Source of the DNA: Candidatus Melainabacteria bacterium
Lineage (GTDB): Bacteria; Cyanobacteriota; Vampirovibrionia; LMEP-6097
Reading direction: 5' to 3'
NCBI GenBank assembly: GCA_005110385.1
Contig: DUDT01000002.1
Location: forward strand, 27,854-91,853
DNA: 64,000 bases
The notes under the pieces: model-generated
Databases searched by the model: none
What the model was told of the DNA's origin: nothing
What the model saw: the letters and a program-made list of their open reading frames with translations, nothing else
Made by a program: the position numbers and the translations under genes
Shown here: positions 1,245 to 60,915 of the stretch, in pieces
Numbering within the stretch: the first letter of the stretch is position 1
Layout: each line of letters begins with the position of its first letter

Positions 1245-4200
1245 TTATTTCTGCAGAACAGCCTGCCTGAGGTTTGCATTATTGGTTTGAGTTGGGACTA
1301 TATTATTAGCAACATCACGACTAGCTTTAACATGATGAATAACCTCTGATGGTTTATGGTATTTATCCCAATGATCTGTAGTATATCTGCCCGCTTGTCT
1401 CAAAGCATTAATAGCACCCATTTCTAAATCAGCATTTGCCTGCATGCCAACACCCAAGAGGTATGGACCTAATGAAGATGAAACTAATAACTGTCCAATA
1501 GGAGTACCCATAAATAAACTTGATGCTGCCATCATTTGGGCACCAATCTTCTGCCACATACCAGCCTCTTTAGGATTGATTTTCACTTGACGCCCAGCTA
1601 CATCAGTAAACATTTCTGGATAACCTTGTGCTTTTTGCTCTACATGCCTTGCTGCAGTCACCATACCGAATGTAGAAGCCAAAGTCTCTACCGAGTTAAG
1701 TACCATTTCTAATGCTTTAGTATTTGGCTTAATACCATGCAAGAAAACTGAAACGGCACTAAGACCTGTTGCGATCATACCAGAGGCAGCATAAGCATGC
1801 CCAACACTAGCTACATTAGTATAATCCATACCACTAGTCTGTGAAGTCTTAGTCACACCAGTATTTTTAAATAAACTTCCAAGGAAACCATGTCTAAAGC
1901 CTTTCACCTTAAGGAACTGAGCTGCCATCTCAGTCCCTTGTTTTAAATCCGCAACAGCAGTAGCGAAAAACTCACCCATAAATGGTTTGAGTTTCTTCAC
2001 CACATCTGCCCTTTTATTAGTAAGGTCAGCTGCAAGTGGTCTTAAATTACCATATTTTTTAAAATCCTCTTTACCAAAAACCTTCTCCTCAACCTCAGAT
2101 TTTGTACCTTTTTTAAAATCATCTAATATGGTATTTTCGCCTTGAATAGCAGCATTTCCTCTGCCTATCTGCAACATGCCATTTGCAAGAGCAAAAAGCA
2201 CCTTACGATTAAAACTAGTAGAAGGGAAGCGTGAAGCAGCGAAGCAAACTAACTCTCCAAGAGTCTGCAAAGGGTAAAGCATCGGTGATCTTAAACCACG
2301 AGCCACCCCAGAGACTAAATTATTAATACCAAAAATATTAGCTTGGACCCTATCCATTTTTTTGAATAAAGCTTCATTACCCGTTAATTTAGCACCAATA
2401 GCCGCAGCTCCAGATCCCATTAGAGCAATACCAACACCCTTAATGCCCGTAGCAAAAATCGGTCTTGAATTCTCCATCGATACAACTTTTTCAATCAATC
2501 CTCCAAGAATTGGAATCTTGCTAGTAATAGGCTTAAGCTTATCTACTAGCAAAGTTATAGGTGGATTATTTAAGCTATTTACGATACCTAACTCTTGCAT
2601 ACCAGCATCTGGTGTTTGTAAAGTTCTAGTTAAAGCAAAATCACGTACATCTTTTATCCAGTGAGCATTTGGATCAAACTTAAATTCACAACCTGGCTTA
2701 TCTTTAACAATCTCAGATATGACATGAGCGGCAAATGCATTATTCAAATGGATATTATCTATTTGAATAATTTGAGAAGCATATTTCTCCTGAAAAGACT
2801 CTGCCCACTGACTTTTAGACTTCACTTCTGCTGGATTAGAAGCTTTTGCGTATTGATTTTTCCCTAAATCAATAAGCTGATCTGGATGACCTGCATTCTT
2901 GGGCTGAGCTAAAAGCTCTACCATCCTATCTGCAATGTCAGCTGGTCCCATAAGACCTCGTACAATTACGGCAAGGCCACCACTTATAACGGCTTGTGCC
3001 TGTGCTGGAGAATCACTACCAGCACTATCCCCTAAATAAAGAGGATGTAAATTTTTCTGCTTCGCTTCAGAATAATTAGGAACTACATCCCCCTTAGAAT
3101 TAGCTGGGGCTATCTCTAAATAAAACTGCCTGTTATCAATTACATTAATTAACGTGTGTTCTTTTTTCGCAGTTGGACGTTGTTTTAAATCTTGAATAAA
3201 CTCCACGAAGCCAGCTTGAGTTGAGAAGCATGTATCCTCAAAGCTCTTTACGTGGCTAATACTTTTATTATTAATTGAAAATAAATCCTCACCGAGAGGA
3301 ATTCCATATTTTTCATTCGCCCATTTTTGAACTTCTGGATGCCTAGTAGCATTTAAAAGTAAGGTATAAAGTTTTCTCTGAACATCTAATCTTTCAACAT
3401 TTTTCCAATCTATCGCATGAGGGGTAAAACAAGCTGGTGAACCATCTCTTAATAATTCCGTTAATTTATGCTCAGCATATGGGTCACTTGGAATAAGGTT
3501 TTCTCTTAACTTCGATGTAAGCGGCAGATTTAACTTATCTAGCTCGTTAATAAAATTTCCAGTAGACCATTTAGCCTGCCTAGATTTTGTAGCTAAATCC
3601 ATATAAGCGATATATTGATTCAAGGTCAAATCAGGCATTAATGAAAAAGCTGCTGGAACTGACTTAATCTCTGCCGTTCGAATCGGTTCACCGTTATTAT
3701 CACGAATCTCTAAGAATTTCTGAAGAAAACCCTTCTCTAAGCCGGGTAGACTTACTTTATTCAAGAATTTCATTAATTCCATGAACCTACTAGTATCTTC
3801 ACTGATTTTTACTGGCTCACCAGGCTTGCTTGTAATGCCACCACTAAGACCATAGATTGCAATATTATTGGCAATAATCTTATCCTTAGGATTAGTTAAC
3901 GAATAAGGTATTTCTGCATTTTGGCCAACTACAGCAGATATTTCCTCTGAACTATTTAAGCCTGGTTCGCCTTCAGCTGTAACCATGCTGAGACCCGCTG
4001 CAATACCTGGCCTAGCAGTTAACATACCTAATTGAGCACCAAGAAAATATAAAGCTTGAGCTAATAATCTTCTATGATGCTTGTCCGGAAGAGAGGATTG
4101 TGAACTAGTACTTGCGACCATGGTCGGATTCTTATAACAAGCAGTACCGTCACCATCACTCCTATAGTCTATCTGTTTGCCATCTGCAAGAGCAGTTAAA

Positions 4201-4622
4201 ACATTAGTCCAGAGACGATGATGTATACCTAAAAGTCTAGTTTTATCAGCACCCTTCGCACCTAAAAGTGCTTCTGCTGGAACCAAGTCAGCAACTTGCT
4301 CTTTAGTTAATTTAAGAAGTTTTTTCGCCCTGTTCTGAATCTCTTCTCGAGATAATGGCTTCGGCATGCTTCCCAGATTAAGATTTCGATCTTGAACATG
4401 AAAACCCGCTTCCAGTTGCGCCTTCTGAGCCCTTAAATCTGGACTGCCAGCCGTCTTAGAATCTTCCAGAGCTGAAAACTTAGCAGCTCCGCTAGCACTA
4501 TTAGGAACAGTAACTTCTGGCAAACGATCTTGACGACCAGCACTAGGCTGTCCGCTCGACTGGCTATTTGGTTGAGGATTTAAATTTCTATTGGGGGGGT
4601 TGTCGGCACTGACAGGAGGCAT
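1245..4622 (-). CDS. Large hypothetical protein (1125 aa) with a Pro/Ser/Gln/Asn-rich N-terminus. Candidate secreted or surface protein.
   Basis: Long uninterrupted ORF. The first ~80 aa are low-complexity and no catalytic motif was recognised. Confidence 0.5.
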   Translation of the reverse strand: MPPVSADNPPNRNLNPQPNSQSSGQPSAGRQDRLPEVTVPNSASGAAKFSALEDSKTAGSPDLRAQKAQLEAGFHVQDRNLNLGSMPKPLSREEIQNRAKKLLKLTKEQVADLVPAEALLGAKGADKTRLLGIHHRLWTNVLTALADGKQIDYRSDGDGTACYKNPTMVASTSSQSSLPDKHHRRLLAQALYFLGAQLGMLTARPGIAAGLSMVTAEGEPGLNSSEEISAVVGQNAEIPYSLTNPKDKIIANNIAIYGLSGGITSKPGEPVKISEDTSRFMELMKFLNKVSLPGLEKGFLQKFLEIRDNNGEPIRTAEIKSVPAAFSLMPDLTLNQYIAYMDLATKSRQAKWSTGNFINELDKLNLPLTSKLRENLIPSDPYAEHKLTELLRDGSPACFTPHAIDWKNVERLDVQRKLYTLLLNATRHPEVQKWANEKYGIPLGEDLFSINNKSISHVKSFEDTCFSTQAGFVEFIQDLKQRPTAKKEHTLINVIDNRQFYLEIAPANSKGDVVPNYSEAKQKNLHPLYLGDSAGSDSPAQAQAVISGGLAVIVRGLMGPADIADRMVELLAQPKNAGHPDQLIDLGKNQYAKASNPAEVKSKSQWAESFQEKYASQIIQIDNIHLNNAFAAHVISEIVKDKPGCEFKFDPNAHWIKDVRDFALTRTLQTPDAGMQELGIVNSLNNPPITLLVDKLKPITSKIPILGGLIEKVVSMENSRPIFATGIKGVGIALMGSGAAAIGAKLTGNEALFKKMDRVQANIFGINNLVSGVARGLRSPMLYPLQTLGELVCFAASRFPSTSFNRKVLFALANGMLQIGRGNAAIQGENTILDDFKKGTKSEVEEKVFGKEDFKKYGNLRPLAADLTNKRADVVKKLKPFMGEFFATAVADLKQGTEMAAQFLKVKGFRHGFLGSLFKNTGVTKTSQTSGMDYTNVASVGHAYAASGMIATGLSAVSVFLHGIKPNTKALEMVLNSVETLASTFGMVTAARHVEQKAQGYPEMFTDVAGRQVKINPKEAGMWQKIGAQMMAASSLFMGTPIGQLLVSSSLGPYLLGVGMQANADLEMGAINALRQAGRYTTDHWDKYHKPSEVIHHVKASRDVANNIVPTQTNNANLRQAVLQK

Positions 4623-9704: not shown

Positions 9705-10203
9705 TCACCCTGCAACAGCTTCATCCAAAGCACTCTGTTTAGCACCAGTCTGCCCTTGATAATTACTCTTCGAATTCTTTTTCTTGCCGTAGGGATGAGT
9801 AACAGGTAAATTACGCATAAATATCATTTGAGCGATAGGCTTGCCCGCTATAAGCTTCAAAGGCGCCTTTCCTTGATTAGTTAACTCAACTACCCCTTCA
9901 CCCTCAAAACCACTGTCAAATAGCCCAGCAGACTCCACGTAGAGTCCTAAACGTGCCCATGAACTTTTCCCTTGAAGATAACCATGTATAGTATTCGGGA
10001 AATAAAAATATTCTCTAGTAGTGCCTAAGACAAAATCACCTGGTGCAAGAATCATTTCATCAGCATCAAACTCCTCAAAACTTCCATCTGAACGCTGCTT
10101 TGCAAAATGTCTACCGATATGTACATCTAGGCTATTAGGCTGTATCGCCTTCTCTTCTAAATTATCTATTCTCAGAAAACCTAATGCTAGATAGAGTCTC
10201 ATC
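9705..10203 (-). CDS. dcd: dCTP deaminase (short Dcd/dUTPase-fold). The true start is likely the internal Met 'MRLYLALGF...'. The ORF track runs on to 10313 with a hydrophobic non-homologous N-terminus.
   Basis: 'SSWARLGLYVES' and the C-terminal '...YQGQTG' are Dcd signatures. E. coli Dcd starts 'MRLCDRDI'. Confidence 0.7.
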
Positions 10204-10317
10204 TGCCAGTCTACTAAATTCCCTGGACTAAGAAACACTAAGTATAAGCCAAAAAGTATTATTGGACTGATTAATAGAGAGATGTAAAGAAGTATTAAAG
10301 GATATATGCTCATAAAA

Positions 10318-11382
10318 TTACGCCTTAAGTGCTGCTCCCACTAAATTTTTCAGTTCGTCTACCTTAGAGCTTCTTGACATAGCATCCTCTAGGCTGATGA
10401 CATCACGGTTATAAAGTTCTGCTAGAGCAGATTCCAAAGTCTGCATGCCAATATTTTTACCAGTCTGAATCGCTGAATAGATCTGCGAGGTTTTAGACTC
10501 TCTAATTAAATTAGCCACACCAGGTGTAACCAACATCGCCTCCATAGCGACTACCCTTCCTTGACCATCACGCCTAGCAAGCAGGGTTTGGCTAAGTACA
10601 GCTTTTAATGAATGACTAAGCTGAGTTCTCACCTGTGCCTGCTGCTCAGCTGGGAACACATCAATAAGCCTATCGATAGTACCCGCTGCTGATGAAGTAT
10701 GCAATGTCGCGAAAACTAAATGCCCCGTTTCAGCAGCACGCACAGCAAGTGAAATAGTCTCTAAATCACGCATCTCACCAATTAGAATAACGTCTGGATC
10801 TTCTCTCAAAGCAGCTCTAAGAGCATTAGAGAAAGAATGCGTATGATTACCTATCTCACGCTGATTAATAATACTCTGCTTAGAGGTGTGGATATACTCT
10901 ATCGGATCTTCGATAGTAAGTATATGTTCAGCACGATTAGTATTAATCCAGTCCACCATCGCCGCTAAGGTAGTAGATTTACCAGAACCAGTAGGACCAG
11001 TAACCAATACTAGACCGCGAGGTAGCATTACTAGTTTTTTTACTATCTCAGGTAATCCAAGTTCCTCTATGGATGGTATCTGATAACTTATCATCCTTAA
11101 AGCCACACTGTAACCGAGCCTATCTTTAAAAACATTTATTCTAAAACGACCCACGCCTTCTATACCATAAGCACAGTCGACTTCCCACTCATTCTCTAAA
11201 ACCTTTAGCTGATCCTGTGAGAGAAAACCATCACAGATACTCTTAATCTGCTCACTGGTCAGCTTCTGCATCTCGGTTCTTCTTAGGACACCATTGATTC
11301 TAAGTATAGGTGGCTCTTGTGGAGTAAGATGTAAGTCACTTGCCTTCGCTTTCTTTACTAAATCTAATAATTTATTAATCAT
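10318..11382 (-). CDS. pilT: Type IV pilus twitching-motility ATPase PilT
   Basis: 'LVLVTGPTGSGKSTTLAAM' Walker A and 'ILIGEMRDLETI' Walker B/Asp box, plus a PilT-type C-terminus. 354 aa. Confidence 0.85.
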   Translation of the reverse strand: MINKLLDLVKKAKASDLHLTPQEPPILRINGVLRRTEMQKLTSEQIKSICDGFLSQDQLKVLENEWEVDCAYGIEGVGRFRINVFKDRLGYSVALRMISYQIPSIEELGLPEIVKKLVMLPRGLVLVTGPTGSGKSTTLAAMVDWINTNRAEHILTIEDPIEYIHTSKQSIINQREIGNHTHSFSNALRAALREDPDVILIGEMRDLETISLAVRAAETGHLVFATLHTSSAAGTIDRLIDVFPAEQQAQVRTQLSHSLKAVLSQTLLARRDGQGRVVAMEAMLVTPGVANLIRESKTSQIYSAIQTGKNIGMQTLESALAELYNRDVISLEDAMSRSSKVDELKNLVGAALKA

Positions 11383-11397
11383 AGAGTACCTTTCATC

Positions 11398-12408
11398 TTA
11401 GCCTAAATGCTTAAACACCTTATATGCAGTATCTAAAAGTGGTGCATAATCTTTAGCTCTAGATTTTAAAAGTAAATAATTACCCTTAAACTCAGCGATT
11501 AAATACCAAACTGCTCCACTACTAATCAATGCCTGACAGACTTTCCCCGTACCAATAGCCTGCGATGCTTGGCTAGAATTTTTAAATACCGAGATAAGCT
11601 CGTCTTTATTACTGTCATCCCAGAAAAAAACAGATTTCTCTAATGAGGTAAAACTATCATCTAAGCACAATGCTGCCGTAATATCTTTATTAATATATTT
11701 AAGTAAAGCCTCTTCTAGACTTGAAAGCTTAACATTTGTATTACTATAACTCTTTGTTGAAAACTGTTCTAAATAAACATCAAAAATTTCACTAACTTCG
11801 TCTTTAAGCTCATTTGCCATTCTGCGAGACTTTAAAGCCTGCTGCTTATTTTTAATCTGTTCTTCTGGAACTTCTGCGATTAAATTAGAGAAATCAGCTT
11901 TTTTAAAACTATTTACCATAGTTTCCGAATCATCGAAAATAGTCTTCCAATGCAGTCTTTCCTTTAGATAAATTATCCCGAATACTAAAAGATTTATGAG
12001 AAGTAATACATAGGCATTCACTAAAACCGCTGTAGGAGACTGTCTTACACTGTTATCAGTAGCTACTTGGTTTACTAAAGGCTCTTTAAATATAAAGGCT
12101 GGCGTTCCCTCGCCAAGTGGGACGAAAACTAAAAGTAAAAAGAAAACAGCTATGATTACTAAAAATTCTGCTGAGAGCTTTATTACCTTTTTATTATCTA
12201 CCGCTGGAAACATAAAGCTAATACTTAAAAAAGCGAAAGCTAATTCACCCATTAGGAGATTTAGTATAGAGATCTCTGTCACCAAGCTGCTAAAAGCCGA
12301 GAGATATGAAAGCACTGTCATTAGAATTAAGACAGCCACAATTAATGAGACTATACGCCTACGCATTAATCCTCTTAAAACCGAATTTAAATCAAAACCT
12401 GAAAGCAA
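11398..12408 (-). CDS. Hypothetical polytopic membrane protein with a cytoplasmic C-terminal domain, located downstream of pilT
   Basis: Four to five hydrophobic helices in the N-terminal half. No recognised motif. Confidence 0.4.
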   Translation of the reverse strand: MLSGFDLNSVLRGLMRRRIVSLIVAVLILMTVLSYLSAFSSLVTEISILNLLMGELAFAFLSISFMFPAVDNKKVIKLSAEFLVIIAVFFLLLVFVPLGEGTPAFIFKEPLVNQVATDNSVRQSPTAVLVNAYVLLLINLLVFGIIYLKERLHWKTIFDDSETMVNSFKKADFSNLIAEVPEEQIKNKQQALKSRRMANELKDEVSEIFDVYLEQFSTKSYSNTNVKLSSLEEALLKYINKDITAALCLDDSFTSLEKSVFFWDDSNKDELISVFKNSSQASQAIGTGKVCQALISSGAVWYLIAEFKGNYLLLKSRAKDYAPLLDTAYKVFKHLG

Positions 12409-15369: not shown

Positions 15370-16263
15370 TTAAACTTGATGATCTAATAGTGGAATTACT
15401 ATAAGATGGAACATATCTTCTAATGACTTCTGCATGAGATCTTCAATACTTTGATAATTCCTATCTTTCTTATGCTGTTTCCTCTCAGCTGCAGCTATCT
15501 CATTAAAAGCCTCATTTAATTCTAGTGACTGTCCTACAAGCCGTTTATAAATCTGTGAAACCCTTTCCTCTAATCTTGCCTGAAAAATATCGCTCTTAAT
15601 AAATGTTTCAAAATCTTTCTTTAATGGTGAATCACCCCACTTCTGATGATTCTGATTAAGACTCTTTTCTAAATGATTGCTTTGAAAAGCATTCTCTAAT
15701 TGTTTAATAGCGAAATCTTTTAAAATCCTCTCTGCTGGTTCAAAAAAATAAAACCTAAGGTTATCTTCATCCAGCATACTTTTAGAGAACCTCTCTTTAA
15801 TTTCTAAATAGCCATCTTTAAAGCTCTCTGCTCTCTGTAATTGCTCTTGAGCTTTAAGCATAAAATCTTGCTGAGCTTCTATCCCCTTCTCGTCAATGTT
15901 GTGCCTCATAAGCGTCCAAAGACGATGAACCATTGATAAAACACGGGGATGCGTATTAGAAAATTTCGAATAAGCCATTTCTCTAGCTAAATATCTTTTA
16001 ATTTCAGGTGAAGCAGTAGTTAATTCCCCATTCATCATTGAATTAGCTGGACCAACCTCAAACAATGGCTGCCCACCAGCTGCTTGGATACTATTATTAA
16101 ATGCAGTTAAAATCTTTACTGGATAAACTTTCATGCTTATTACCTTAAACTCCTGCAATGCTAGCAACTTTAATTGCCCCATGTAGTTATTATTAAAAAA
16201 GCTTAAAGGAATTTTATCTATCATAAGCAAATTATTGGACTCAGATTCCAAAAATTCTATCAA
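15370..16263 (-). CDS. Hypothetical protein
   Basis: 297-aa ORF with no recognisable family. Confidence 0.4.
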   Translation of the reverse strand: MIEFLESESNNLLMIDKIPLSFFNNNYMGQLKLLALQEFKVISMKVYPVKILTAFNNSIQAAGGQPLFEVGPANSMMNGELTTASPEIKRYLAREMAYSKFSNTHPRVLSMVHRLWTLMRHNIDEKGIEAQQDFMLKAQEQLQRAESFKDGYLEIKERFSKSMLDEDNLRFYFFEPAERILKDFAIKQLENAFQSNHLEKSLNQNHQKWGDSPLKKDFETFIKSDIFQARLEERVSQIYKRLVGQSLELNEAFNEIAAAERKQHKKDRNYQSIEDLMQKSLEDMFHLIVIPLLDHQV

Positions 16264-16336
16264 TTTTTCAGACTAGAACTCCAAAACACCCAAAAACTGG
16301 GTAAAATATTAATATTCAAGAAAGTATTTTAAAACC

Positions 16337-17476
16337 ATGGATATAAAAAGAGAAGTACAAATAGATAAACTTCTAAAAAAAGGCAAAGCCTTACTAATCT
16401 ATGGTGCAAGGCAGGTTGGAAAAACTACTTTAGTTAAAAACTTTCTTCTCAAGAATAAATCTAAATTCAGGCAGCGTACTGGAGAAGACATTCAGCTACA
16501 GATTTTATTTAAAGACCTTTCAATAACTGACTTAGACGAGTTTGTGGAAAATTTAGAAATTCTCATTATAGATGAGGCTCAAATTCTAGAGAATCTCGGC
16601 AGAGGAATTAAATTAATTTTAGATAGAAACCCAAAGCTAGCAATAATATTAACAGGTTCATCTTCATTTGAATTAGCAAATCAGCTCAGTGAGGCACTAA
16701 CTGGTAGGAAAAAAACTCAATCCCTCTTACCTCTTAGTATTAAAGAACTCTCTGAGCATTATGGTCGATATGAAATTAAACATAAACTAGAAGAATTATT
16801 ACTCTATGGCTCATACCCCGAAGTCATTACGACTGAAAATAAACATGAGAAGCGAGAACTGATCCTTGAGATAGCTAATAGCTATTTATTTAAAGATATT
16901 CTGAGTTTTTTAAATCTAAAAAAAGCTGATGTCCTTTATAAATTAACGAAATTACTTGCTTATCAAATCAGCTCAGAAGTGAATGTTAATGAGCTTGCGA
17001 GTAACTTACAAGTCGATAATAAAACTATTACTCATTACCTAGATATATTAGAAAAATCCTTTGTTATAAAAATGATTCCAGCCTTCAATAGTAATCAGAG
17101 AAACGAAATCAAAAAATCTAAAAAGATATATTTCTTAGATCTCGGTATTAGAAATGCTTTAATAAACCAGTTTCAAGACATAGAGTTACGAAATGACAAA
17201 GGAGCATTATGGGAGAATTTCGTTTTTCTGGAACTCTATAAGCGAATCGAATACGACAGAAGTTTTAAAACTATCTATTTTTGGCGAACCCATGAACAGC
17301 AGGAAATAGATTTTATCCTAGAAGCAGATGGTTTACTAGAACTCTATGAAGCTAAGTTTAATGCTAAAAAAAGCGCGAAGATCCCGCCGCAGTGGCTAAA
17401 ACATTATCCAGAATTTCAAGAATTAAAGCTGATTCATACTGGGAATTTTATGGATTATTTTACTAATACAGATTAG
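16337..17476 (+). CDS. AAA+ ATPase, COG1373/DUF4143 family (paralog 1)
   Basis: 'LLIYGARQVGKTTL' P-loop, 'ILIIDEAQ' Walker B and a C-terminal DUF4143-like region ('YFWRTHEQQEIDFIL'). Confidence 0.75.
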   Translation: MDIKREVQIDKLLKKGKALLIYGARQVGKTTLVKNFLLKNKSKFRQRTGEDIQLQILFKDLSITDLDEFVENLEILIIDEAQILENLGRGIKLILDRNPKLAIILTGSSSFELANQLSEALTGRKKTQSLLPLSIKELSEHYGRYEIKHKLEELLLYGSYPEVITTENKHEKRELILEIANSYLFKDILSFLNLKKADVLYKLTKLLAYQISSEVNVNELASNLQVDNKTITHYLDILEKSFVIKMIPAFNSNQRNEIKKSKKIYFLDLGIRNALINQFQDIELRNDKGALWENFVFLELYKRIEYDRSFKTIYFWRTHEQQEIDFILEADGLLELYEAKFNAKKSAKIPPQWLKHYPEFQELKLIHTGNFMDYFTNTD

Positions 17477-17582
17477 ATATTAAATGCATTAAAAATCATT
17501 AAAAGAATTTTATCTATTCGCTAATCTGCCCTTTAATACTGCTAAGATTATGAGCGTCTTATTTTAAACAAAGGAGTTTAAA

Positions 17583-18710
17583 TTGGATAGACGTAAGTTC
17601 CTAACATTAGCAGGAGCAGCAGGAGTTATGGCAGCATACCCCAGAGTAACTGCGGCTTCTGTACCTAAAATATCTGATAATGAAGAAGCCTTTCAAACTT
17701 CTGATAAAAGTGGTGCCAATAATACACCCCAAAAGCACCGCCCAAGAGCTTTACATGAAAAAGCTTTAGAAACATTAAATCCCACTACTACAGAAGCAGC
17801 CACCTCAATCTTTAGCCAGTTTCAAGAAGCTTCTCTATTGATCGAAAAAAATATAAAAGCTAATACAGTTGGTCGTTTAAACAAAGAAGAAACTATTTAC
17901 TCTAATGCTGATAAATGGGCATCTGCCACTATGGCTGCTCCTATATGGGCATTAAGCCTAGCAAGTCGCACACTCGGTGATTCTATTACAGCAGGAATTG
18001 AATTAAGTAAATCCGATAAATCCTCACTCAGCACCATGTTTGCATATAATGCTCAAACTTTTTCTATCACTTATATTAAAAACTTTCTTGTCGAATCATT
18101 ACGAAATTCACTCATAGAGCAGATGAAATTAAATAATGAACTAGACCCTCGTCGTATCAATGCTCAAGCTGTTTTTAAAGATCTAAATCAAAACAGAGAT
18201 TCTCTGAAAATAAAATTCTCAGAGAATCTTCAATCAATATATGAAATTCCTAAATCCTTTAAAGAGACTTCTCTTGATAGAAAAATCTTCGATAGCGGAT
18301 CAATCGTCATAGGTTTTCTACTAAGCCCTATTAATACTGGTCTTGGTAAATTTGCAAGTGCACTAGGTCGCCAAAGAATAGTCGGTGAGAATGCTTTAAG
18401 AAAAGAGCTGGGGTCTGAAAATTATAATAAACAAGCCAAAATAGCTGTGGCTAATGCAATTACTTACCCTTTTTTTAATTTAATTAATGGAATATGCCAA
18501 GAGCTAGTTAAGAAGACTATTACACTTGATAGCAGCTCACAGTTAGCTCAAACTAATTTCAGAGAATTAATCGGTAACCTATCAAGCTTTTTTGGATATA
18601 TGACTCTAAAAGTACCTATTCAAAATGAGCTTGAACATGCGATGCATAAGCAAGAAGAATTCAGGACACCTTTTAGGGAAATTGCTGTATTGATGGAGCC
18701 AAATAAATGA
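17583..18710 (+). CDS. Hypothetical exported protein with a twin-arginine signal peptide
   Basis: 'MDRRKFLTLAGAAGVMAAYP' is an RRxFL Tat motif. Confidence 0.5.
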   Translation: MDRRKFLTLAGAAGVMAAYPRVTAASVPKISDNEEAFQTSDKSGANNTPQKHRPRALHEKALETLNPTTTEAATSIFSQFQEASLLIEKNIKANTVGRLNKEETIYSNADKWASATMAAPIWALSLASRTLGDSITAGIELSKSDKSSLSTMFAYNAQTFSITYIKNFLVESLRNSLIEQMKLNNELDPRRINAQAVFKDLNQNRDSLKIKFSENLQSIYEIPKSFKETSLDRKIFDSGSIVIGFLLSPINTGLGKFASALGRQRIVGENALRKELGSENYNKQAKIAVANAITYPFFNLINGICQELVKKTITLDSSSQLAQTNFRELIGNLSSFFGYMTLKVPIQNELEHAMHKQEEFRTPFREIAVLMEPNK

Positions 18711-18731
18711 AGCTCAGATTTTATAAAACCA

Positions 18732-19853
18732 TTATAAATACAACCCCTCTAAAAACTCTTTTGCAACACAGACCTTAACCCCAGACTCGATTCTAGATTT
18801 ACCCATATTTTTCACGATCTGAAAAGCCTTATAACCATAATGCTCTTTAAAATTTAAAAGACTTTTAGAAATATTTTTATCACTTAATTTCGCTTCTAAA
18901 ATATACTCTAGCTCACCTTTATTAGCCACCGCGAAATCGACTTCCAGCCCATCTTTCGTCCTAAGATAATGTAATTCTTTTTCTTCTGCAAGATAATCAT
19001 TCTCAGCATAAATACTTTTAAGTAAGCTCAAAGCCACAAGATTTTCAAAAGCCGCTCCCTCACTGTGACTTACTAGAGCAGTGTCAAAAAAATAAATCTT
19101 TGGTTCTTTTAAAATACTTCTTGCAATATTTTTAGAATAAGGGGTCACCCTGAAAATAATGTATAGAGCTTCTAATATCTCAATATACTTTTTAACTGTA
19201 TTCGATGAAATTTTTAAATCTTCTGCAAGTGAATTAAATGAAATACTAGAACCAACTCGCAGCCTTAACATATCAAAAAGCAGCCTCATAGCTTTGATAT
19301 TCTGAATCGGCTCTAAATCAAATACATCAGTAGTAAGTAAACCATTAACATATTGCTGCCTCCACCTGCTTGCTTCTAAATCATCATCCGCTAGAAAGGG
19401 TTCAGGGAAACCACTTCTAAGCATTAACTGACCTAAAGAGACGGTCTCATTTATCTTCCTAAACTCCGCTAAGGAAAAAGGCATTAACCTATGCCTAAAA
19501 TACCTACCAGCTAGTGAGTCACCTAACTTATCGAAGACCTCTAACCTTGCACTACCAGTAACCAATATGCGTGTCCCACTTTCTTTAGTATCGAAAACAC
19601 CTTTAATAAAATTTTTCCATTCTGGTTTTTTATGCAGCTCATCAAAAATAATCAAATCTAAATCCCTGTCCCAGATTTGCTTATCAATTATTTCCTTATC
19701 TTCTAAAGAATCGTAATTTAAATAAAGCGAATTGCTATAGGCTTTAGCAATTTTCTTAGCTAGCCATGTTTTACCAGACTGTCTTGGACCTACCAAAAAT
19801 ACCATTTTTTTCTCCAAGTCTTTTTTAATAGGATCTAGCTGAAAGCGTTTCAT
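18732..19853 (-). CDS. AAA+ ATPase, COG1373/DUF4143 family (paralog 2)
   Basis: 'MVFLVGPRQSGKTWLAK' and 'LIIFDELHK', with a DUF4143-like C-terminus. Confidence 0.75.
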   Translation of the reverse strand: MKRFQLDPIKKDLEKKMVFLVGPRQSGKTWLAKKIAKAYSNSLYLNYDSLEDKEIIDKQIWDRDLDLIIFDELHKKPEWKNFIKGVFDTKESGTRILVTGSARLEVFDKLGDSLAGRYFRHRLMPFSLAEFRKINETVSLGQLMLRSGFPEPFLADDDLEASRWRQQYVNGLLTTDVFDLEPIQNIKAMRLLFDMLRLRVGSSISFNSLAEDLKISSNTVKKYIEILEALYIIFRVTPYSKNIARSILKEPKIYFFDTALVSHSEGAAFENLVALSLLKSIYAENDYLAEEKELHYLRTKDGLEVDFAVANKGELEYILEAKLSDKNISKSLLNFKEHYGYKAFQIVKNMGKSRIESGVKVCVAKEFLEGLYL

Positions 19854-19897
19854 TTATTAAATAATTCTACCCAAATTTTGACTTTTTCTCAAGCTAT

Positions 19898-19946
19898 TGC
19901 AAATTAGTCGCGACTTTTTTGCAACTTAATGCAAATTAGTCAGTTC
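19898..19946. promoter_or_regulatory. Direct repeat TGCAAATTAGTC x2 in the divergent promoter region between ATPase paralog 2 and leuC
   Basis: 'ttgcaaattagtcgcgac' and 'atgcaaattagtcagttc' lie about 31 bp apart. Confidence 0.35.
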
Positions 19947-20004
19947 ATTGGCAAAAAAATCACAAGATCATTTCCCATCAAACTTGCTAAAATAGCTTAT
20001 TAAT

Positions 20005-21357
20005 ATGGCTAAAACTCTCTTCGATAAAGTCTGGGATGCACACGTAGTGGAAGCACTTCCTGGAGATAATTACCTGATATTCATGGATAGAATAGTGGCT
20101 CACGAGATCACTACACCGCAGGGTGCGATTCAAATCGATGAAGAGTTCGCGGGCAGAATTTTTGATGCTAATCGTATTTTAGCGATTAATGACCATGTCG
20201 CCCCAGCAAAAGATACAGCGACAGCTATTCAAGCAAGTGTGCTTAGAAAATGGGCTAAAAAGCACGGTATTAGACACTTTGATATCGGTGAAAATGGTAT
20301 CTGCCACGTAGTCGCTCCAGAAAGAGGTTATGTTCAGCCAGGGATGACGCTTTGTTGTGGCGATAGCCACACCTGTACTAATGGAGCTTTCGCCTGTTTC
20401 GCTCTAGGAATCGGTACTACTGCTAATGCTGGAGCTATGCTCTCTCAGTGCCTATTACTGAAAAAGCCTAAAGTTATGCAGATTAACCTTACAGGGAAGC
20501 GTCGTCAAGGAGTTTATGCTAAGGATCTTATTCTAGCTATTATTAATAAAATCACCTTTAAAGGTGGTACTGGCTTCGTTCTAGAATACACTGGTGATGC
20601 TATCGCTGACCTAGACATGGAAGAACGCATGACTATCTGTAATATGGCTATAGAAGCTGGTGCTACTAGTGGCATGATAGCTGCTGATGAAGTGACTTTC
20701 GAGTATTTAAGAGGTAAAGAGCAGATAACTAAAGATTCTGCTGAGTTCGATACACTAAAAGCTAAATGGGCTAAATTCACTCCAGATGCGGGTGCTACTT
20801 ATGATGAAGTTGTGGAAATAGATGTTTCTGCACTAAAACCTACAGTTACTTGGGGAATTAATCCTGGTGAATCTAGCAGTTTCGATGGTGTAGTGCCTGC
20901 TGATGCAGATCCTAAGGCTTTAGAATATATGGGACTTAAAACTGGAGATAAATTAGCTGATCTAGACATAGACCAAGCCTTTATTGGTAGCTGTACTAAC
21001 GCTAGAATTTCCGATCTTAGAATCGCTGCGAGCATTTTAAAAGGTCAGAAAGTTTCTATCCCAACTATTATTACTCCGGGGTCTCAAGAAGTTAAACGCC
21101 AAGCGGAACGTGAAGGTTTACATGAAATATTTCAAGATGCTGGAGCACTCTGGACTCACGCTAGCTGCGGACCTTGCCTCGGAATGAGCATGGGCGTAGT
21201 TGCTCCACAGGAAAGATGCATCTCTAGTACTAACCGTAATTTCCCAGGGCGCATGGGAGCTGGAGCGAGAACACATCTAGCTAGCCCTGCGATAGTGGCT
21301 GCGACAGCAATTAAGGGTAGGATTACTTCGCCTGAGCTTTTGCTCGCTGGAGTATAA
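20005..21357 (+). CDS. leuC: 3-isopropylmalate dehydratase large subunit (aconitase family), with no adjacent leuD
   Basis: 'MAKTLFDKVWDAHVV' is a canonical LeuC start. Fe-S cysteine ligands are present in 'GSCTNAR' and 'SCGPCLG'. Confidence 0.8.
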   Translation: MAKTLFDKVWDAHVVEALPGDNYLIFMDRIVAHEITTPQGAIQIDEEFAGRIFDANRILAINDHVAPAKDTATAIQASVLRKWAKKHGIRHFDIGENGICHVVAPERGYVQPGMTLCCGDSHTCTNGAFACFALGIGTTANAGAMLSQCLLLKKPKVMQINLTGKRRQGVYAKDLILAIINKITFKGGTGFVLEYTGDAIADLDMEERMTICNMAIEAGATSGMIAADEVTFEYLRGKEQITKDSAEFDTLKAKWAKFTPDAGATYDEVVEIDVSALKPTVTWGINPGESSSFDGVVPADADPKALEYMGLKTGDKLADLDIDQAFIGSCTNARISDLRIAASILKGQKVSIPTIITPGSQEVKRQAEREGLHEIFQDAGALWTHASCGPCLGMSMGVVAPQERCISSTNRNFPGRMGAGARTHLASPAIVAATAIKGRITSPELLLAGV

Positions 21358-21407
21358 AAAGCTAAACTTCAACTCAAATATCATTAATAGTAAAAAACTA
21401 AACGAAA

Positions 21408-21461
21408 GTATACTTTAAAATGGTAGAACTAAACTAAAATATACTTTAGAATAGTTCTAAG
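21408..21461. promoter_or_regulatory. Pair of ~24-bp repeats (TATACTTTARAATRGT..ACTAA), containing the inverted half-sites TAGAACT/AGTTCTA, upstream of ATPase paralog 3
   Basis: 'gtatactttaaaatggtagaactaa' and 'atatactttagaatagttctaag'. Confidence 0.35.
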
Positions 21462-21508
21462 TTGTGGAATATATAATTTGGCTCATCCACTAAATAAAAG
21501 ATAAACCT

Positions 21509-22798
21509 ATGTTCCCTAGAGAATTCTGGATCACAAAAATACAAAAAGCTTGGAGACTGAGGTCTATCATCTGGCTAGTCGGCGTAAGGCGTATAGGTAA
21601 AACCACCTTAGTAAAGTCATTATCTGAGGGTGATAAGGCGGGTAAAAACGCAAAAAATGGAATTGCGCATGGGTCTCTTCTGTATTATGACTGTGAGTTA
21701 AAAAGAAACCGTGATCTTATTGAAAGCGATGTAGAAGAATTTTGGCAGGGAAAAGAAAATAAGATCGTAATCCTAGACGAGATTCATCGTTTAGAAAATC
21801 CTTCTGAAGTCCTGAAAATAGCTGCTGATCATTATTCTAATGTTAAGGTGATAGCTACGGGCTCATCTACTCTAGCTGCTAGTAAAAAATTTAAAGACAC
21901 TCTAAGTGGACGAAAAATCGTCATAGAGCTAAGACCATTAATAGAAGCTGATCTTCTTGCTTTTGCTCAGAATAAAAATCCCAAAATAATAGAACCTATA
22001 AATGAGGATAACGAAAACGCAGAAATTGGAGTTCGGCAACAGTGCCATAATACACTTTTAGAAAAACGCTTTCTCTACGGTGGCATGCCCGAGAATTATC
22101 TCAGTGACGAACTGCCTGAATACGCCTTTGAAGAATGGATTGACTCTTACTGGTCTAAAGATATTCAAGAACTTTATGAGCTGCGTAGTAAATTTGCTTT
22201 TCAGAAATTTATGGAATTGCTCTTTATACAGAGTGGCGGAATCTTTGAAGCTAGTAAATTTGCCACTGACTGTAAAGTTAGTAGTCCGACTATTAGTAAT
22301 TTTTTACACGTACTAGAAGAAACCTTTGTTATAGATGTTCTTCGTCCTTATCATAAACGAAAAAATTCTGAAATCGTTTCAGCACCTAAGGTTTATGCTT
22401 TTGACACTGGGCTTGCTTGTTATTTAAAAGGCTGGTCATCACTCAGGAACGAGGATTTAGGTATATTCTGGGAACACTTCGTTTTAAATGAACTAAAAGC
22501 TCAGCTCCAAAACAATGCAGACATACTATACTGGCGAAACAAAAAAAAGCAAGAAGTCGACTTTATAATTAAGAAAAAACGCTCACAGACTGTTATAGCT
22601 ATAGAAACTAAATGGCAAGCTAAAAATTTCAGCCCAGACAATCTACAAGCTTTTCGTGAACTACATCCAGAAGGAGAGAATTTTCTTATCGCCAATGATA
22701 TCCAAGAATCATATACAAAAAACTATACTGACCTGAAAGTAAAATTCATTAGTTTAAGAGAATTTATCTTGCAGATTACTCTTGGCACAGCTCCTTGA
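21509..22798 (+). CDS. AAA+ ATPase, COG1373/DUF4143 family (paralog 3), carrying an in-frame repeat-element insertion
   Basis: 'WLVGVRRIGKTTLVK' and 'IVILDEIHR'. The inserted peptide is 'NEDNENAEIGVRQQCHN'. Confidence 0.75.
   Translation: MFPREFWITKIQKAWRLRSIIWLVGVRRIGKTTLVKSLSEGDKAGKNAKNGIAHGSLLYYDCELKRNRDLIESDVEEFWQGKENKIVILDEIHRLENPSEVLKIAADHYSNVKVIATGSSTLAASKKFKDTLSGRKIVIELRPLIEADLLAFAQNKNPKIIEPINEDNENAEIGVRQQCHNTLLEKRFLYGGMPENYLSDELPEYAFEEWIDSYWSKDIQELYELRSKFAFQKFMELLFIQSGGIFEASKFATDCKVSSPTISNFLHVLEETFVIDVLRPYHKRKNSEIVSAPKVYAFDTGLACYLKGWSSLRNEDLGIFWEHFVLNELKAQLQNNADILYWRNKKKQEVDFIIKKKRSQTVIAIETKWQAKNFSPDNLQAFRELHPEGENFLIANDIQESYTKNYTDLKVKFISLREFILQITLGTAP
22001..22051 (+). repeat. Dispersed in-frame repeat element copy (AATGAGGATAACGAAAACGCAGAAATTGGAGTTCGGCAACAGTGCCATAAT)
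   Basis: Shares 'AATGAGGAT.ACGAAAACGCAGAAATTGGAGTT' with 9356-9410, and 'EIGV.(Q/E)QC' with the guaA copy. Confidence 0.8.
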
Positions 22799-22870
22799 TT
22801 TATCCTAGATAAGCGAATAAAACTTGCCAGGAGACATTTTAGAATATAGCGAGAAGCCAGAAGATCCAAA

Positions 22871-22972
22871 AAATTAGCTCTTATTTAGTCTATCTATAAT
22901 AGAGTAAATAAGGGTATAATTCTATTATCAATAGAGTAAATAAAAAATTAGCTCTATTACCAATAGAATAAA
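22871..22972. promoter_or_regulatory. Array of three palindromic operator-like sites, TCTATT-N3-4-AATAGAGTAAATA, immediately upstream of ATPase paralog 4
   Basis: 'tctataatagagtaaata', 'tctattatcaatagagtaaata' and 'tctattaccaatagaataaat', spaced about 30 bp apart and ending at the ATG. Confidence 0.45.
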
Positions 22973-22973
22973 T

Positions 22974-24278
22974 ATGGTCTTCAAAGTCAACGATATCAAA
23001 GAATTATTAGTATTGCAGATGAAGAGATTCTGCTCAGCAGAACTAAACGTCATCAGAGAAGATGCATTAAAACTAGTAGAAAAACACGTGAAAGCCCCTC
23101 AAGCAGTGGTTATTAGTGGCTTAAGAAGAGCTGGAAAATCTACATTTCTGCATCAAATCGCTCATAAATACTATGAAAAAAATGCTTACTACTATATTAA
23201 TTTTGATGATGATAGATTTTCAGACTTCACAGCTAGTGACTTTAACGCATTACTTGAAATTCTAATCGAACTATTTTCAGAAAGAAAAGTAATCTTTTTC
23301 GACGAAATCCAAAACATTGATAAGTGGGAAACCTTCTGTAGAAGGCTTATAGATAATGGTTTTAAACTTTACATCACTGGATCTAACGCTTCATTACTGA
23401 GTAAAGAGCTTGGTACTAGGCTTACAGGGCGTTATTTTCCATTAGAGCTTTTTCCTTTTAGCTTCGAGGAGTTTTTACGTTATCGAAAAATCGATATTAA
23501 AGAGATAATGAAAGAGAGCCGAAACGTTTTAGACACTAAGACACGAGCCTTATTAAAAAACAAGCTTAAAGAATATATTTTAAAAGGCTCTATCCCAGAG
23601 GCTTTAAGATATCCAGAGCTACCTGTATTAAAAAGCCTCTACCGAGATATTCTCTACCGAGATATAGCTACACGTTACAGAATAGAAGCTGATAGAACCC
23701 TGCGTGAGCTTTCTCTGCGAGTTTTCACTGATATTACTAGCCCTATACAGTTTTCTAAAATTAAACAGCAGCTCGGCATCGGTAATGTAACTACTGTCAC
23801 TAATTACATTTCATATTTAGAAAACTCTTGGTTAATTTTTGCTATAAATATCTTCGATATTTCGATTAAAAGGCAGCAAATCGCCCCTAAAAAAATCTAC
23901 GCCATAGATACAGGTCTAATACATGAGATAACTTTTAAATTTAAAGAAAAACAGGGAGTCCTATTAGAGAATCTAGTTTTTTTACATCTACGTAAAAAAT
24001 ATCAAGAGGTTTTTTACTATAAAACTAAATCTAACTATGAAGTAGATTTTTTCATTCCCGAAGCAGCTTTGCTAGTGCAGGTTTCTTACGACATTTCAGA
24101 TTTAGAAACCAAGGAAAGAGAAATTAGATCACTTATAGAAGCTAAATCTGAATTAGAGATGGATAAAAAATTTAAAATTAAAAAACTCCTAATAATAAAC
24201 TTCGAGCTTAAAGATCAGGAAAAAATCCAAAAAAATACTATAGAAATTATTCCAGCTTACGAGTTTTTACTTTCTTGA
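22974..24278 (+). CDS. AAA+ ATPase, COG1373/DUF4143 family (paralog 4)
   Basis: 'VVISGLRRAGKSTFL' and 'VIFFDEIQN', with a DUF4143-like C-terminus. Confidence 0.75.
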   Translation: MVFKVNDIKELLVLQMKRFCSAELNVIREDALKLVEKHVKAPQAVVISGLRRAGKSTFLHQIAHKYYEKNAYYYINFDDDRFSDFTASDFNALLEILIELFSERKVIFFDEIQNIDKWETFCRRLIDNGFKLYITGSNASLLSKELGTRLTGRYFPLELFPFSFEEFLRYRKIDIKEIMKESRNVLDTKTRALLKNKLKEYILKGSIPEALRYPELPVLKSLYRDILYRDIATRYRIEADRTLRELSLRVFTDITSPIQFSKIKQQLGIGNVTTVTNYISYLENSWLIFAINIFDISIKRQQIAPKKIYAIDTGLIHEITFKFKEKQGVLLENLVFLHLRKKYQEVFYYKTKSNYEVDFFIPEAALLVQVSYDISDLETKEREIRSLIEAKSELEMDKKFKIKKLLIINFELKDQEKIQKNTIEIIPAYEFLLS

Positions 24279-42989: not shown

Positions 42990-43027
42990 AGATACTGAGT
43001 ATAGCAAAAAATATTTACTGAGGCTTT

Positions 43028-43062
43028 TGGACAAATCAAGGATTATATCCCTGATTTGTCCA
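43028..43062. promoter_or_regulatory. Near-perfect 15-bp inverted repeat, TTGGACAAATCAAGG-N8-CCCTGATTTGTCCAA, between the divergent ndk and ATPase paralog 5
   Basis: Read directly: 'tttggacaaatcaaggattatatccctgatttgtccaaaa'. Confidence 0.5.
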
Positions 43063-43083
43063 AAACTGTGGTATAAGATTAAC

Positions 43084-54734: not shown

Positions 54735-54790
54735 ACAGCGACGAAAACGCAGAAAGACGAAAACGCAGAAAATGGAGTTGTGCAGCGGTC
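54735..54790 (+). repeat. Intergenic copy of the dispersed repeat with an internal tandem duplication (GACGAAAACGCAGAAA x2), then ...AATGGAGTTGTGCAGCGGTC
   Basis: 'gacagcgacgaaaacgcagaaagacgaaaacgcagaaaatggagttgtgcagcggtc'. It overlaps the last codon of the permease gene. Confidence 0.75.
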
Positions 54791-60380: not shown

Positions 60381-60587
60381 ATGCTGTTATCTATTTTCAT
60401 AAAACAAAAAAGAAAAATCGCTAAACTCACGCAAATAGAACTCGCGGAGAAAGCTGGAGTGGGCTTAAGATTTCTTAGAGATTTAGAGCAGGGTAAAGAA
60501 ACTTTAAGGTTAGATAAGGTAAATCAAGTACTGAGTTTATTTGGTTATGAAATGGGACCAGTTAAGTCTCAGCTAGGTGATAGTTAG
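60381..60587 (+). CDS. hipB: XRE-family HTH protein (HipB-like)
   Basis: 'LTQIELAEKAGVGLRFLRDLEQGK' is an HTH_XRE motif. First gene of the three-gene operon. Confidence 0.55.
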   Translation: MLLSIFIKQKRKIAKLTQIELAEKAGVGLRFLRDLEQGKETLRLDKVNQVLSLFGYEMGPVKSQLGDS

Positions 60588-60915
60588 AATGAGAAAAGCT
60601 GAGGTCTTAATGCACGAGGAACTTGCAGGCTGGCTAAGTCAAGATGAGCTGGGATATCACTTTCAGTATGCAGAAGAGTACCTTAAGTCAGAAAACCCTG
60701 TACCAATAAGCTTTACACTACCGATTAAAAAAGAAGCCTTTAACAGCTCTGTGTTATTTCCTTTTTTTGATGGGTTGATACCCGAAGGTTGGCTTTTAAA
60801 TATAGCTGAAAAAAACTGGAAACTTAAGCCTAGAGATCGCATGGGCTTGTTAATGGCTTGCTGCCTGGATTGTATTGGGGCGGTGAGTATTAATCCATTA
60901 ATAGAAGAATCATGA
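60577..60915 (+). CDS. hipS: HipA N-terminal subdomain-like protein (HipS-like)
   Basis: 'LPIKKEAFNSSVLFPFFDGLIPEGW' matches the HipA_N motif (..FF.NLLPEG). Its stop overlaps the next start (ATGA). Confidence 0.55.
   Translation: MIVRMRKAEVLMHEELAGWLSQDELGYHFQYAEEYLKSENPVPISFTLPIKKEAFNSSVLFPFFDGLIPEGWLLNIAEKNWKLKPRDRMGLLMACCLDCIGAVSINPLIEES

Follow-up and report, generated by a model that had tools for sequence, protein, structure and literature searches.

Why should a 64-kb stretch of a melainabacterial genome hold five distantly related copies of a gene for an ATPase with a C-terminal DUF4143 domain, four of them packed into 8 kb? The stretch, called the window below, comprises the 64,000 nucleotides at positions 27,854 to 91,853 of contig DUDT01000002.1 (assembly GCA_005110385.1, Candidatus Melainabacteria bacterium, from an uncultured group related to cyanobacteria), and an earlier note made from its letters had described the genes as a local expansion of COG1373/DUF4143 paralogs with operators of their own. 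Our analysis favors a different answer, which we hold to be probable: the locus would be a set of five independent single-gene, autoregulated modules, separately acquired and each equipped with its own operators, in which a nuclease is held low and which are candidates for portable defence. We regard each gene as a self-contained autoregulated module because operator and recognition helix co-vary, and because the same design is found in relatives of paralogs D and A.

The five open reading frames (ORFs) predicted in the earlier note are confirmed by Pfam, with scores above the gathering cut-offs. Paralog A (16337–17476, plus strand) encodes 379 residues, B (18732–19853, minus strand) 373, C (21509–22798, plus strand) 429, D (22974–24278, plus strand) 434 and E (43084–44280, plus strand) 398, counted from a GTG codon. 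All five have an AAA_14 domain at the N-terminus (E-values 1e-38 to 3e-24; 86–133 bits at a cut-off of 27) followed by DUF4143 (E-values 4e-48 to 9e-21; 75–164 bits at a cut-off of 28.1). The mechanical ORF of E starts at a TTG codon at 43027, and we prefer the GTG at 43084, as the earlier note did, because with this start the N-terminus lines up with those of the other paralogs and because a palindrome of 15+15 nt fills positions 43027–43063. All five proteins are also classified by PADLOC as PDC-S01, a single-gene system, with profile hidden Markov model scores of 193–443 bits (A 443, B 193, C 205, D 340 and E 318). Different PDC-S01 sub-models lead for different paralogs: PDLC04789 for A, PDLC04787 for D and PDLC04790 for E. 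Pairwise identity among the five is 23–29%, and the deep divergence that had been claimed for them is real.

The control region of paralog B lies at 19880–19941 on the minus strand and consists of two tandem 30-nt palindromes, built from four quarter-sites GACTWWTTTGCA in the orientations -> <- -> <- with a 32-nt period. The arrays before D and B are the top two tandem repeats of the window according to Tandem Repeats Finder (TRF; scores 97 and 89). Of 80 loci with a B orthologue, 76 have a homologous element immediately before the gene, which measures exactly 62 nt in 72 of them, with the consensus GACTATTCTGCA-N6-TGCAGAATAGTC-TT-GACTTTTCCGCA-N6-TGCAGAATAGTC. The junction between the two units reads TTGACT in 48/68 cases, and after a 16-nt spacer positions 21–26 of the second unit, in the last arm, read TAGAAT, CAAAAT, CAGAAT, CATAAT or TATAAT, resembling a –10 box. 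In 55 of the 76 loci the ATG codon lies 2–4 nt past the element and thus 6–8 nt past the –10 box, which implies a leaderless message, as we infer for most B orthologues. A promoter scanner calls the site within the B element in one of the orthologous loci (L051). The B operator of the window lineage does not have the promoter hexamers of its orthologues. Instead, a TTGAGA-17-TAGAAT promoter is located at 19864–19892 on the minus strand, which with 10/12 matches outranks every other sigma-70-like site of the 8.3-kb region. The proximal operator arm contains its –35 box, and 10 nt separate the end of its –10 box from the ATG, so that any leader would be very short.

The arms of the B palindromes are 81% complementary, compared to 37–42% with a slid partner, and changes on both sides of an arm pair occur in 128 cells, compared to 61 ± 6 after shuffling (0 of 500 shuffles reach the observed value). 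Mismatches are split evenly between G-T (91) and A-C (92). Since there is no bias of G-T over A-C, the symmetry acts at the DNA level, which argues against a hairpin in the sense-strand RNA. Taken with its loops, unit 2 partly matches the reverse complement of unit 1 (0.52 compared to about 0.27). We also considered the whole 62-nt element as one long hairpin and rejected it, given the missing G-U bias and the embedded promoter. Quarter-sites elsewhere near the B gene are limited to sporadic single matches in 10/76 loci. One locus (L071), unique among the 76, has a second complete B-type palindrome about 3 kb downstream of the B orthologue (approximately 3288–3320), which may mark a second regulated gene.

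The outer GACT of the quarter-site is invariant, and positions 8–11 vary between genomes. The variation at positions 10–11 tracks a single position in the protein. Residue 218 of B is the X in the stretch S-P-X-T-V-K-K-Y-I, and the residue that follows it is the invariant Thr at the start of helix 3 of the winged helix. In the window it is N218, at the N-terminal end of the recognition helix, and it pairs with operator arms of the TGCA type. When residue 218 is N or H, operator positions 10–11 are GC without exception (26/26). M, I or V is accompanied by AT or AA (10 cases), T mostly by CC (8/17), A by GA (three cases, plus two as GN) and G by TG or AA (three cases). Residue 218 ranks highest of about 370 protein columns in mutual information (MI) with positions 10–11, with a raw MI of 1.91 bits compared to a column mean of 0.40 ± 0.38 and a shuffle-adjusted MI of 1.16 (z = 14.4) compared to 0.49 (z = 5.4) for the runner-up. 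These raw and shuffle-adjusted measures at the variable positions replaced normalized MI, which was swamped by near-invariant operator positions. On a tree built without the winged-helix region, residue 218 and the operator bases each change about 26–27 times, and the link is therefore not explained by a single clade. The pattern indicates that the recognition helix co-evolves with its own operator, and it gives the earlier idea of dedicated operators the backing of protein–DNA co-variation across dozens of orthologues. Within one palindrome about 10 bp separate the variable positions, and the spacing between the two palindromes is about three helical turns, a geometry that would fit two dimers on one face of the DNA.

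Operator-like palindromes with other letters are found upstream of the other paralogs, though only weakly so for A. The putative C operator (21396–21456, plus strand) has two 31-nt units of the form AACTAAAC-NAAA...TTTA-GAATAGTT, a B-like design with other inner bases, and its half-site has no other occurrence in the window. The array upstream of D (22885–22974, plus strand) comprises 2.8 copies of 32 nt, with TCTAT-N5-ATAGA at 22889, 22921 and 22953. The third of these palindromes directly adjoins the ATG, and the first two are separated by a stretch that contains a TATAAT box. Relatives of D with 35–42% identity again have a TCTATT..AATAGA core upstream, and D-like relatives carry tandem TTTCTATT-N3-AATAGAAA palindromes with the core of the three D sites in the window. 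Variants of the D-like recognition helix each have a palindrome of their own (Q-SVIDY with TCTATT, N-SVISF with TTCAYT..AATGAA and I-SVRDY with ATATTGnCAATAT), and these palindrome variants track the helix position equivalent to residue 218 of B. In many D-like relatives a TTTATAAA box, similar to an archaeal-type promoter, precedes the ATG by 25–30 nt. Upstream of E, the operator-like plus-strand palindrome at 43027–43063 reads TTGGACAAATCAAGG-N7-CCCTGATTTGTCCAA. Next comes TGGTATAAG, an extended –10 box with its end 6 nt short of the GTG codon. For A, an operator-like region at 16235–16307 on the plus strand contains the palindrome TTGGACTCAGATTCCAA (16235–16251), a degenerate second copy at about 16264–16286 and a TAAAAT –10-like box. 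An 84%-identical orthologue of A (L163) has a clean TTTTGGACT-CTA-AGTCCAAAA palindrome and a second copy, and orthologues with about 40–50% identity have paired TTTTGGAnT-N3-AnTCCAAAA palindromes with variant half-sites in a matching design. The upstream arrays described in the earlier note are thus clear for B, C, D and E and faint for A.

The design extends beyond the window. Tandem palindrome pairs are found upstream of 25–42 of 144 family genes, compared to 1–2 of 668 neighboring genes (p-values of 7e-18 to 4e-33). A detector that demands perfect 7-nt arms finds 5/144 and is too strict, and the looser settings behind these counts were used equally on family genes and controls. Distant family members have upstream repeats as well. 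Each half-site of the window occurs only before its own gene, bar one chance D-like match inside pheT. As read from the DNA, the five operators are mutually distinct, and the observations support the view that the winged helix of each protein recognizes its own operator.

The predicted structure offers a protein that could do this. An AlphaFold model of A built on 44 sequences (pLDDT 91, pTM 0.90) has an AAA+ core at residues 1–130 and a helical lid to about residue 192, followed by a winged helix formed by helices 197–209, 217–224 and 228–240 and a beta wing. The C-terminal domain has an alpha-beta-beta-beta-alpha-beta core (helix 288–307, strands 312–317, 323–330 and 333–339, a helix and a strand). 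The nuclease residues E293, D325, E338 and K340, in the arrangement E...D...ExK, are located in this core and are invariant or nearly so in the alignments. In a Foldseek search with full-length A the top matches are Orc1/Cdc6 on origin DNA (2qby_A, E-value 1.7e-6), RuvB and Apaf-1. Modelled alone (pLDDT 88), the C-terminal domain gives matches that are individually weak (best E-value 9e-3) and all of the PD-(D/E)xK fold: McrC, Cdn1/Can2, AF1548, Hjc, XisH, Bax1, AvaII/HincII and the nuclease domains of DdmD and Avs4. A sequence search of the PDB with A returns P-loop matches only (TnsC and a Rab). Pfam, the models and the fold matches thus agree with the earlier assignment of a P-loop N-terminal domain and a nuclease-fold-like DUF4143 domain, and the models predict an architecture of an initiator- or STAND-like AAA+ ATPase (STAND: signal transduction ATPases with numerous domains), lid, winged helix and PD-(D/E)xK nuclease. 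No C-terminal repeat sensor of the STAND type is present, as the chain ends about 40 residues past the nuclease core and Pfam nSTAND models stay below their cut-offs. Pfam also finds no HTH_3/Xre domain in the paralogs, which are 373–434 residues long.

Both predicted active sites are well conserved. The residues invariant among the five proteins (G23, R25, G28, K29, D79, E80, T106, G107, S108, G123 and R124) cover Walker A, Walker B, sensor 1 and the Arg of a GR motif, which is a candidate Arg finger. In B orthologues Walker A and B, the GR Arg and the nuclease E, D and ExK are kept in 65–67 of 67 sequences, where invariant columns make up only 19% overall. Paralog D has QVS in place of ExK as nuclease motif III and does not match the canonical motif. 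As IQV[C/S/T] replaces ExK throughout the D-like subfamily (D and the loci L089–L149), together with a conserved RE downstream, the D motif is a stable variant and not a product of decay. It may reflect a relocated active-site residue or an altered activity.

How the genes came together is indicated by their relatives. The nearest relatives of A outside the species are about 50% identical and belong, among the matches listed, to Omnitrophota, Anaerolineae, Aquificales and others. Orthologues of B with 55–68% identity are found in Melainabacteria, Babeliales, Legionellales, Rickettsiales, Chlamydiae, Patescibacteria and more, and for D the identity of relatives falls from 96% and 81% to 42% or less. 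Because each gene is nearer to orthologues in other phyla (50–68% for A and B) than to its neighbors (23–29%), sequence comparison indicates separate acquisition, and the cluster is an accretion of separate lineages rather than the local expansion described before. The B orthologues (L012–L088) occur mainly in host-associated or episymbiotic groups, namely Chlamydiae, Legionellales/Berkiella/Francisellaceae, Rickettsiales/Finniella, Babeliales (TM6), Patescibacteria and Melainabacteria. This distribution suggests that the B subfamily spread by gene exchange within a protist-associated community.

The cluster is seen only in this species group. Outside it, 68 of 77 B loci hold a single family member within ±10 kb and have no neighbors in common with the window, and all five A orthologues examined are solitary among housekeeping genes. 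Single copies scattered through related genomes without a conserved neighborhood had been named in the earlier note as the mark of just a large family, and for the cluster as a unit this is largely the pattern found. Even relatives with B proteins that are 96–99% identical (L009–L011) differ inside the cluster, and we therefore regard the locus as a hotspot with turnover of independent modules and other cargo. In one of them (L011, B 98% identical) an insert with helix-turn-helix (HTH), DUF2975 and beta-lactamase-like genes lies between D and C, and a 336-residue ORF lies between C and leuC. Directly beside A, at 10138–12350 of that locus, are an EcoO109I-type restriction endonuclease, an N6/N4 DNA methyltransferase and an IS66-family transposase. 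A second relative (L009) has a split beta-lactamase-like insert in the cluster, and a third (L010) has an A–B pair in another neighborhood together with a sixth divergent paralog. The synteny comparison thus places type II restriction–modification (R-M) and IS66 genes beside A in one relative and reveals no conserved neighborhood beyond the species group. Within the 8-kb cluster itself there are no R-M, BREX or DISARM genes. The defence-gene context amounts to this R-M pair with its transposase and a PDC-S37/Hhe-like gene about 1 kb from E, and most orthologues are solitary.

Two further genes lie among A–D, as the earlier note had described. A 375-residue ORF on the plus strand (17583–18710) has a twin-arginine signal motif for the twin-arginine translocation (Tat) pathway near its start, DRRKFLTLAGAAGVMAAYP (DRRKFLT...), and no family match in Pfam, PADLOC or NCBIfam. 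The other, also on the plus strand (20005–21357), encodes a leuC-type large subunit of the aconitase family (Pfam E-value 1e-141; NCBIfam NF004016, 531 bits at a cut-off of 510). It is divergent from B, wedged between B and C, and outside the DUF4143 family. No leuD (small-subunit) domain was found in any window ORF of at least 110 residues, and the 2-kb interval that holds most of leuC has a GC fraction of 0.41, compared to about 0.33–0.34 in the flanking intervals. The leuC gene is 98% identical in two of the close relatives (L009 and L011) and absent at the equivalent position in the third (L010). The Tat ORF is absent from L011, and in L010 it is reduced to fragments that lie on the opposite side of B; these relatives are 96–98% identical. 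A multi-gene system with leuC and the Tat ORF was rejected, as neither is conserved beside the paralogs even in near-identical relatives, and we treat both as unrelated cargo rather than partners. A transposon or integron cassette was likewise rejected: no matching end repeats flank the B orthologues, and there is no transposase or integrase in the window.

The earlier statement that the function of the family is unknown is out of date in one respect. PDC-S01 was catalogued as a phage defence candidate in a survey by ‘guilt-by-embedding’ (bioRxiv 10.1101/2024.01.29.577857). According to PMC12988326, its members combine an ATPase with a PD-(D/E)xK domain in one protein, it ranks fourth by frequency among defence calls in prokaryotes, and validation is pending. 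The same source gives 29,494 calls for 40,000 bacterial genomes and 9,986 for 7,747 genomes of archaea, and it reports that phage defence candidates are enriched in Chlamydiota and Patescibacteria. DUF4143 was listed as a PD-(D/E)XK family already in 2012 (PMC3424549). The literature searched contains no mechanism, regulation or validated activity for PDC-S01, the preprint text of Payne et al. makes no statement specific to it, and the self-operator architecture and the recognition code are absent from the PDC-S01 papers searched. The family is very large (46,268 clusters at 50% identity, E-value ≤ 1e-3), and in a search for relatives of A the matches at E-values ≤ 1e-20 alone filled the limit on candidates. 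Members occur on 399 plasmid records, with one B-type copy on a Rhabdochlamydia plasmid. On viral contigs, single-protein scans with A, C and E found nothing and a profile scan found 9 loci in 2.9 million; the family is rare there. Measured against about 0.74 PDC-S01 calls per bacterial genome (from the counts in PMC12988326), five copies in 64 kb are a genuine local excess. The defence- or mobile-related role proposed in the earlier note agrees with the listing as a candidate and fits the R-M pair and IS66 transposase beside A in the 98%-identical relative. A defence role for the modules is plausible, unproven and still that of a candidate.

A working scheme for such a module can be outlined. 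Each gene would bring its own control region of tandem palindromic operators that overlap or adjoin the promoter. Dimers would occupy the two palindromes cooperatively, and negative autoregulation, perhaps activation followed by repression, would hold a potentially harmful ATP-dependent nuclease to a low transcriptional set point. With lower confidence, we envisage that an invader-derived cue leads to an ATP-dependent assembly in which the nuclease becomes active, and that this assembly pulls the protein off its operator, whereupon expression would rise. A hint for induction comes from a Thermus AAA_14/DUF4143 gene that is upregulated 6.6-fold in the presence of plasmid DNA (PMC4406477). If activation by a cue holds, the module would be a compact, portable defence gene, and distinct operators would permit several modules per genome without cross-repression. 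It is possible, though we have doubts, that the scheme applies to the whole DUF4143/PDC-S01 family. Its members would then be plug-and-play modules with repressor, sensor and nuclease in one polypeptide, in which one residue of the recognition helix sets the inner operator bases, removal from the operator by assembly or competing DNA switches the gene on, and leaderless or TATA-proximal promoters work across phyla and possibly in both domains. In a bolder version, the specificity of the winged helix may also pick the targets of the nuclease, which would make these proteins sequence-programmable, methylation-independent, restriction-like nucleases.

Several points weigh against the proposal of autoregulated defence modules. 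Repression, cooperativity, leaderless transcription and nuclease activity are all deduced from sequence, and the winged helix of related ATPases (STAND, ORC) can be merely structural. The element of A is weak in the window and becomes convincing only through its orthologues, and the operators of C and E are read from the window itself. Anti-phage activity is demonstrated for no family member: the one PDC-S01 representative tested in E. coli B against T4, T5 and T7 was not among the four protective candidates (bioRxiv 10.1101/2024.09.26.614923). The rarity of the family on viral contigs also speaks against a defence role, as does the finding that most orthologues stand alone among housekeeping genes, outside defence islands.

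Four other explanations can be set beside the proposal. The five genes might simply belong to a large family with scattered members, brought close together by an insertion-tolerant hotspot and with no functional meaning in their proximity. The family size, the mostly solitary orthologues with unrelated neighbors and the changes of the cluster between near-identical genomes are all as expected from this explanation, which is compatible with separately acquired modules and does not contradict them. However, it is silent on what the genes do, it does not account for the strong excess of five members in 64 kb over about 0.74 per genome, and it leaves aside the R-M and transposase genes at the same spot in a relative and the PDC-S37/Hhe-like gene near E. 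We consider it unlikely. Selfish or addictive elements would be kept without gain to the host, either because cells suffer when the repressor-nuclease is lost or diluted or because the gene furthers its own transfer. Such behavior could explain why B-type genes are 55–60% identical in unrelated phyla, each with a portable promoter and operator, why copies are carried on plasmids, including that of Rhabdochlamydia, and why relatives are frequent in host-associated bacteria with reduced genomes, and the one heterologous phage test was negative. Nevertheless, an antitoxin-like partner gene is absent, the gene is not accompanied by flanking repeats, a transposase or an integrase, purifying selection on both active sites is strong in many lineages, and the family is rare on viral contigs. 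We judge this explanation improbable.

The remaining two are less probable still. Duplication in place, recent or ancient, followed by divergence would explain four members with one domain architecture in 8 kb, but it already conflicts with the identities of 23–29% between neighbors and 50–68% to orthologues in other phyla, with the different best PADLOC sub-models and with the related genome that has yet another divergent member at the same place. There is very little chance that it is correct. The palindromes could instead be RNA leader structures, similar to attenuators or riboswitches, or sites for an unrelated host regulator, as long inverted repeats can fold as RNA and the complementarity of the arms co-varies. 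Such a leader would be expected to favor G-U-compatible changes, which the even split of mismatches does not show, and near-consensus –35 and –10 boxes inside the element, 6–8 nt from the ATG, would leave most of it untranscribed; nor is there an Rfam match. Both versions are at odds with the finding that the variable bases track one residue of the recognition helix over about 26 independent changes, and a host factor could not stay constant over eight or more phyla. We find it hardly credible. Self-regulation by the encoded protein through its own operator is the interpretation we retain.

The window has a GC content of about 36%, exact copies of B are present on 21 metagenome contigs with unchanged gene order, and the nearest genome records are metagenome-assembled genomes of Vampirovibrionia/Melainabacteria (B 97–99% identical). 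On the side of A where L011 has its R-M pair, the window continues with hypothetical ORFs, followed by pheT. Elsewhere it carries chromosomal housekeeping genes: gpsA, pheT, pilT, dcd, nrdB, PFOR, rpsP, ndk, guaA, a guaB-like gene, smpB, ftsY and a split rpoC2. The 64 kb contain no tRNAs, no Rfam matches and no ORF for a transposase or integrase. About 1 kb from E, with rpsP and ndk between, a helicase-nuclease gene at 37800–42011 on the minus strand encodes 1403 residues with DUF4011, superfamily 1 helicase (AAA_11/AAA_12) and MTES_1575 restriction-endonuclease-like domains. PADLOC assigns it to PDC-S37 with 1149 bits and to Hhe with 521 bits, and the NCBIfam ProA and Hhe anti-phage models remain under their cut-offs. 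A 315-residue ORF with a HipA_C kinase domain (Pfam E-value 5e-44; 60577–61859, plus strand) overlaps the end of a 112-residue ORF, and the two may form a HipBA-like or split HipA toxin–antitoxin module. Two large minus-strand ORFs have no Pfam match, one of 1125 residues at 1245–4622, which has no PADLOC match either, and one of 483 residues at 57639–59090. Inside the Tat-signal ORF, a 15-bp stem with a 3-nt loop and 93% complementarity (18197–18229) has a terminator-like score on the minus strand. A perfect 2 x 16-nt tandem repeat, GACGAAAACGCAGAAA, lies at 54740–54771 between genes for an ABC permease and an aminotransferase and has the third-highest TRF score in the window (64).

PDC-S01 is a very common defence call, yet it lacks a mechanism and a validated activity. 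The locus and about 150 related loci provide a concrete and cheap experimental handle on it, consisting of a defined 62-bp operator, a residue predicted to set specificity by a readable code and a promoter predicted to give leaderless messages. Phage assays at native expression levels could follow, and non-native expression may explain the failed heterologous test. The locus also offers an example of how several autoregulated copies of a putative nuclease could share one genome through distinct operators.

How, finally, does the proposed module compare with known systems? In membership and make-up (AAA_14 plus DUF4143; COG1373), the five genes are PADLOC PDC-S01 and differ from it in nothing. 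The closest parallel for the circuit is found in the controller proteins of type II R-M systems (C.PvuII, C.AhdI and C.Esp1396I), which likewise have two tandem palindromic operators before their own gene, the proximal one overlapping the promoter, and in whose circuits transcripts are leaderless or nearly so (predicted here), a nuclease is controlled and sites differ between systems (PMC2632904). However, the controllers are small proteins (about 80 residues) of the Xre-type HTH class, encoded by a separate gene upstream of that for the nuclease and with operators of about 35 bp. Here, a winged helix is predicted within an ATPase-nuclease of 370–430 residues, the element is 62 bp long and no methyltransferase takes part. 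The resemblance is one of circuit layout and not of homology, and in the present case regulator and effector appear to be fused. Avs4-type STAND proteins and McrBC also couple an AAA+/STAND NTPase to an effector of the restriction-endonuclease fold, and our fold searches return the NTPase modules of Apaf-1 and resistosomes as well as the nuclease domains of McrC and Avs4. In contrast to Avs proteins, the paralogs have no C-terminal repeat sensor (tetratricopeptide repeats or similar), and their nuclease is C-terminal, after a winged helix predicted to be sequence-specific. Compared to the two-protein system McrB/McrC they are single chains, and they are much smaller, with about 400 residues. 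Orc1/Cdc6 is the best structural match over the full length and shares the AAA+ core, the lid and a winged helix that reads repeats beside its own gene. Those proteins are initiators without a nuclease domain, whereas the paralogs occur in five copies in one genome and show no sign of an origin, as judged by the lack of replication genes nearby. The genes are thus members of a known, uncharacterized family, and the regulatory architecture with its readable code is the new part.

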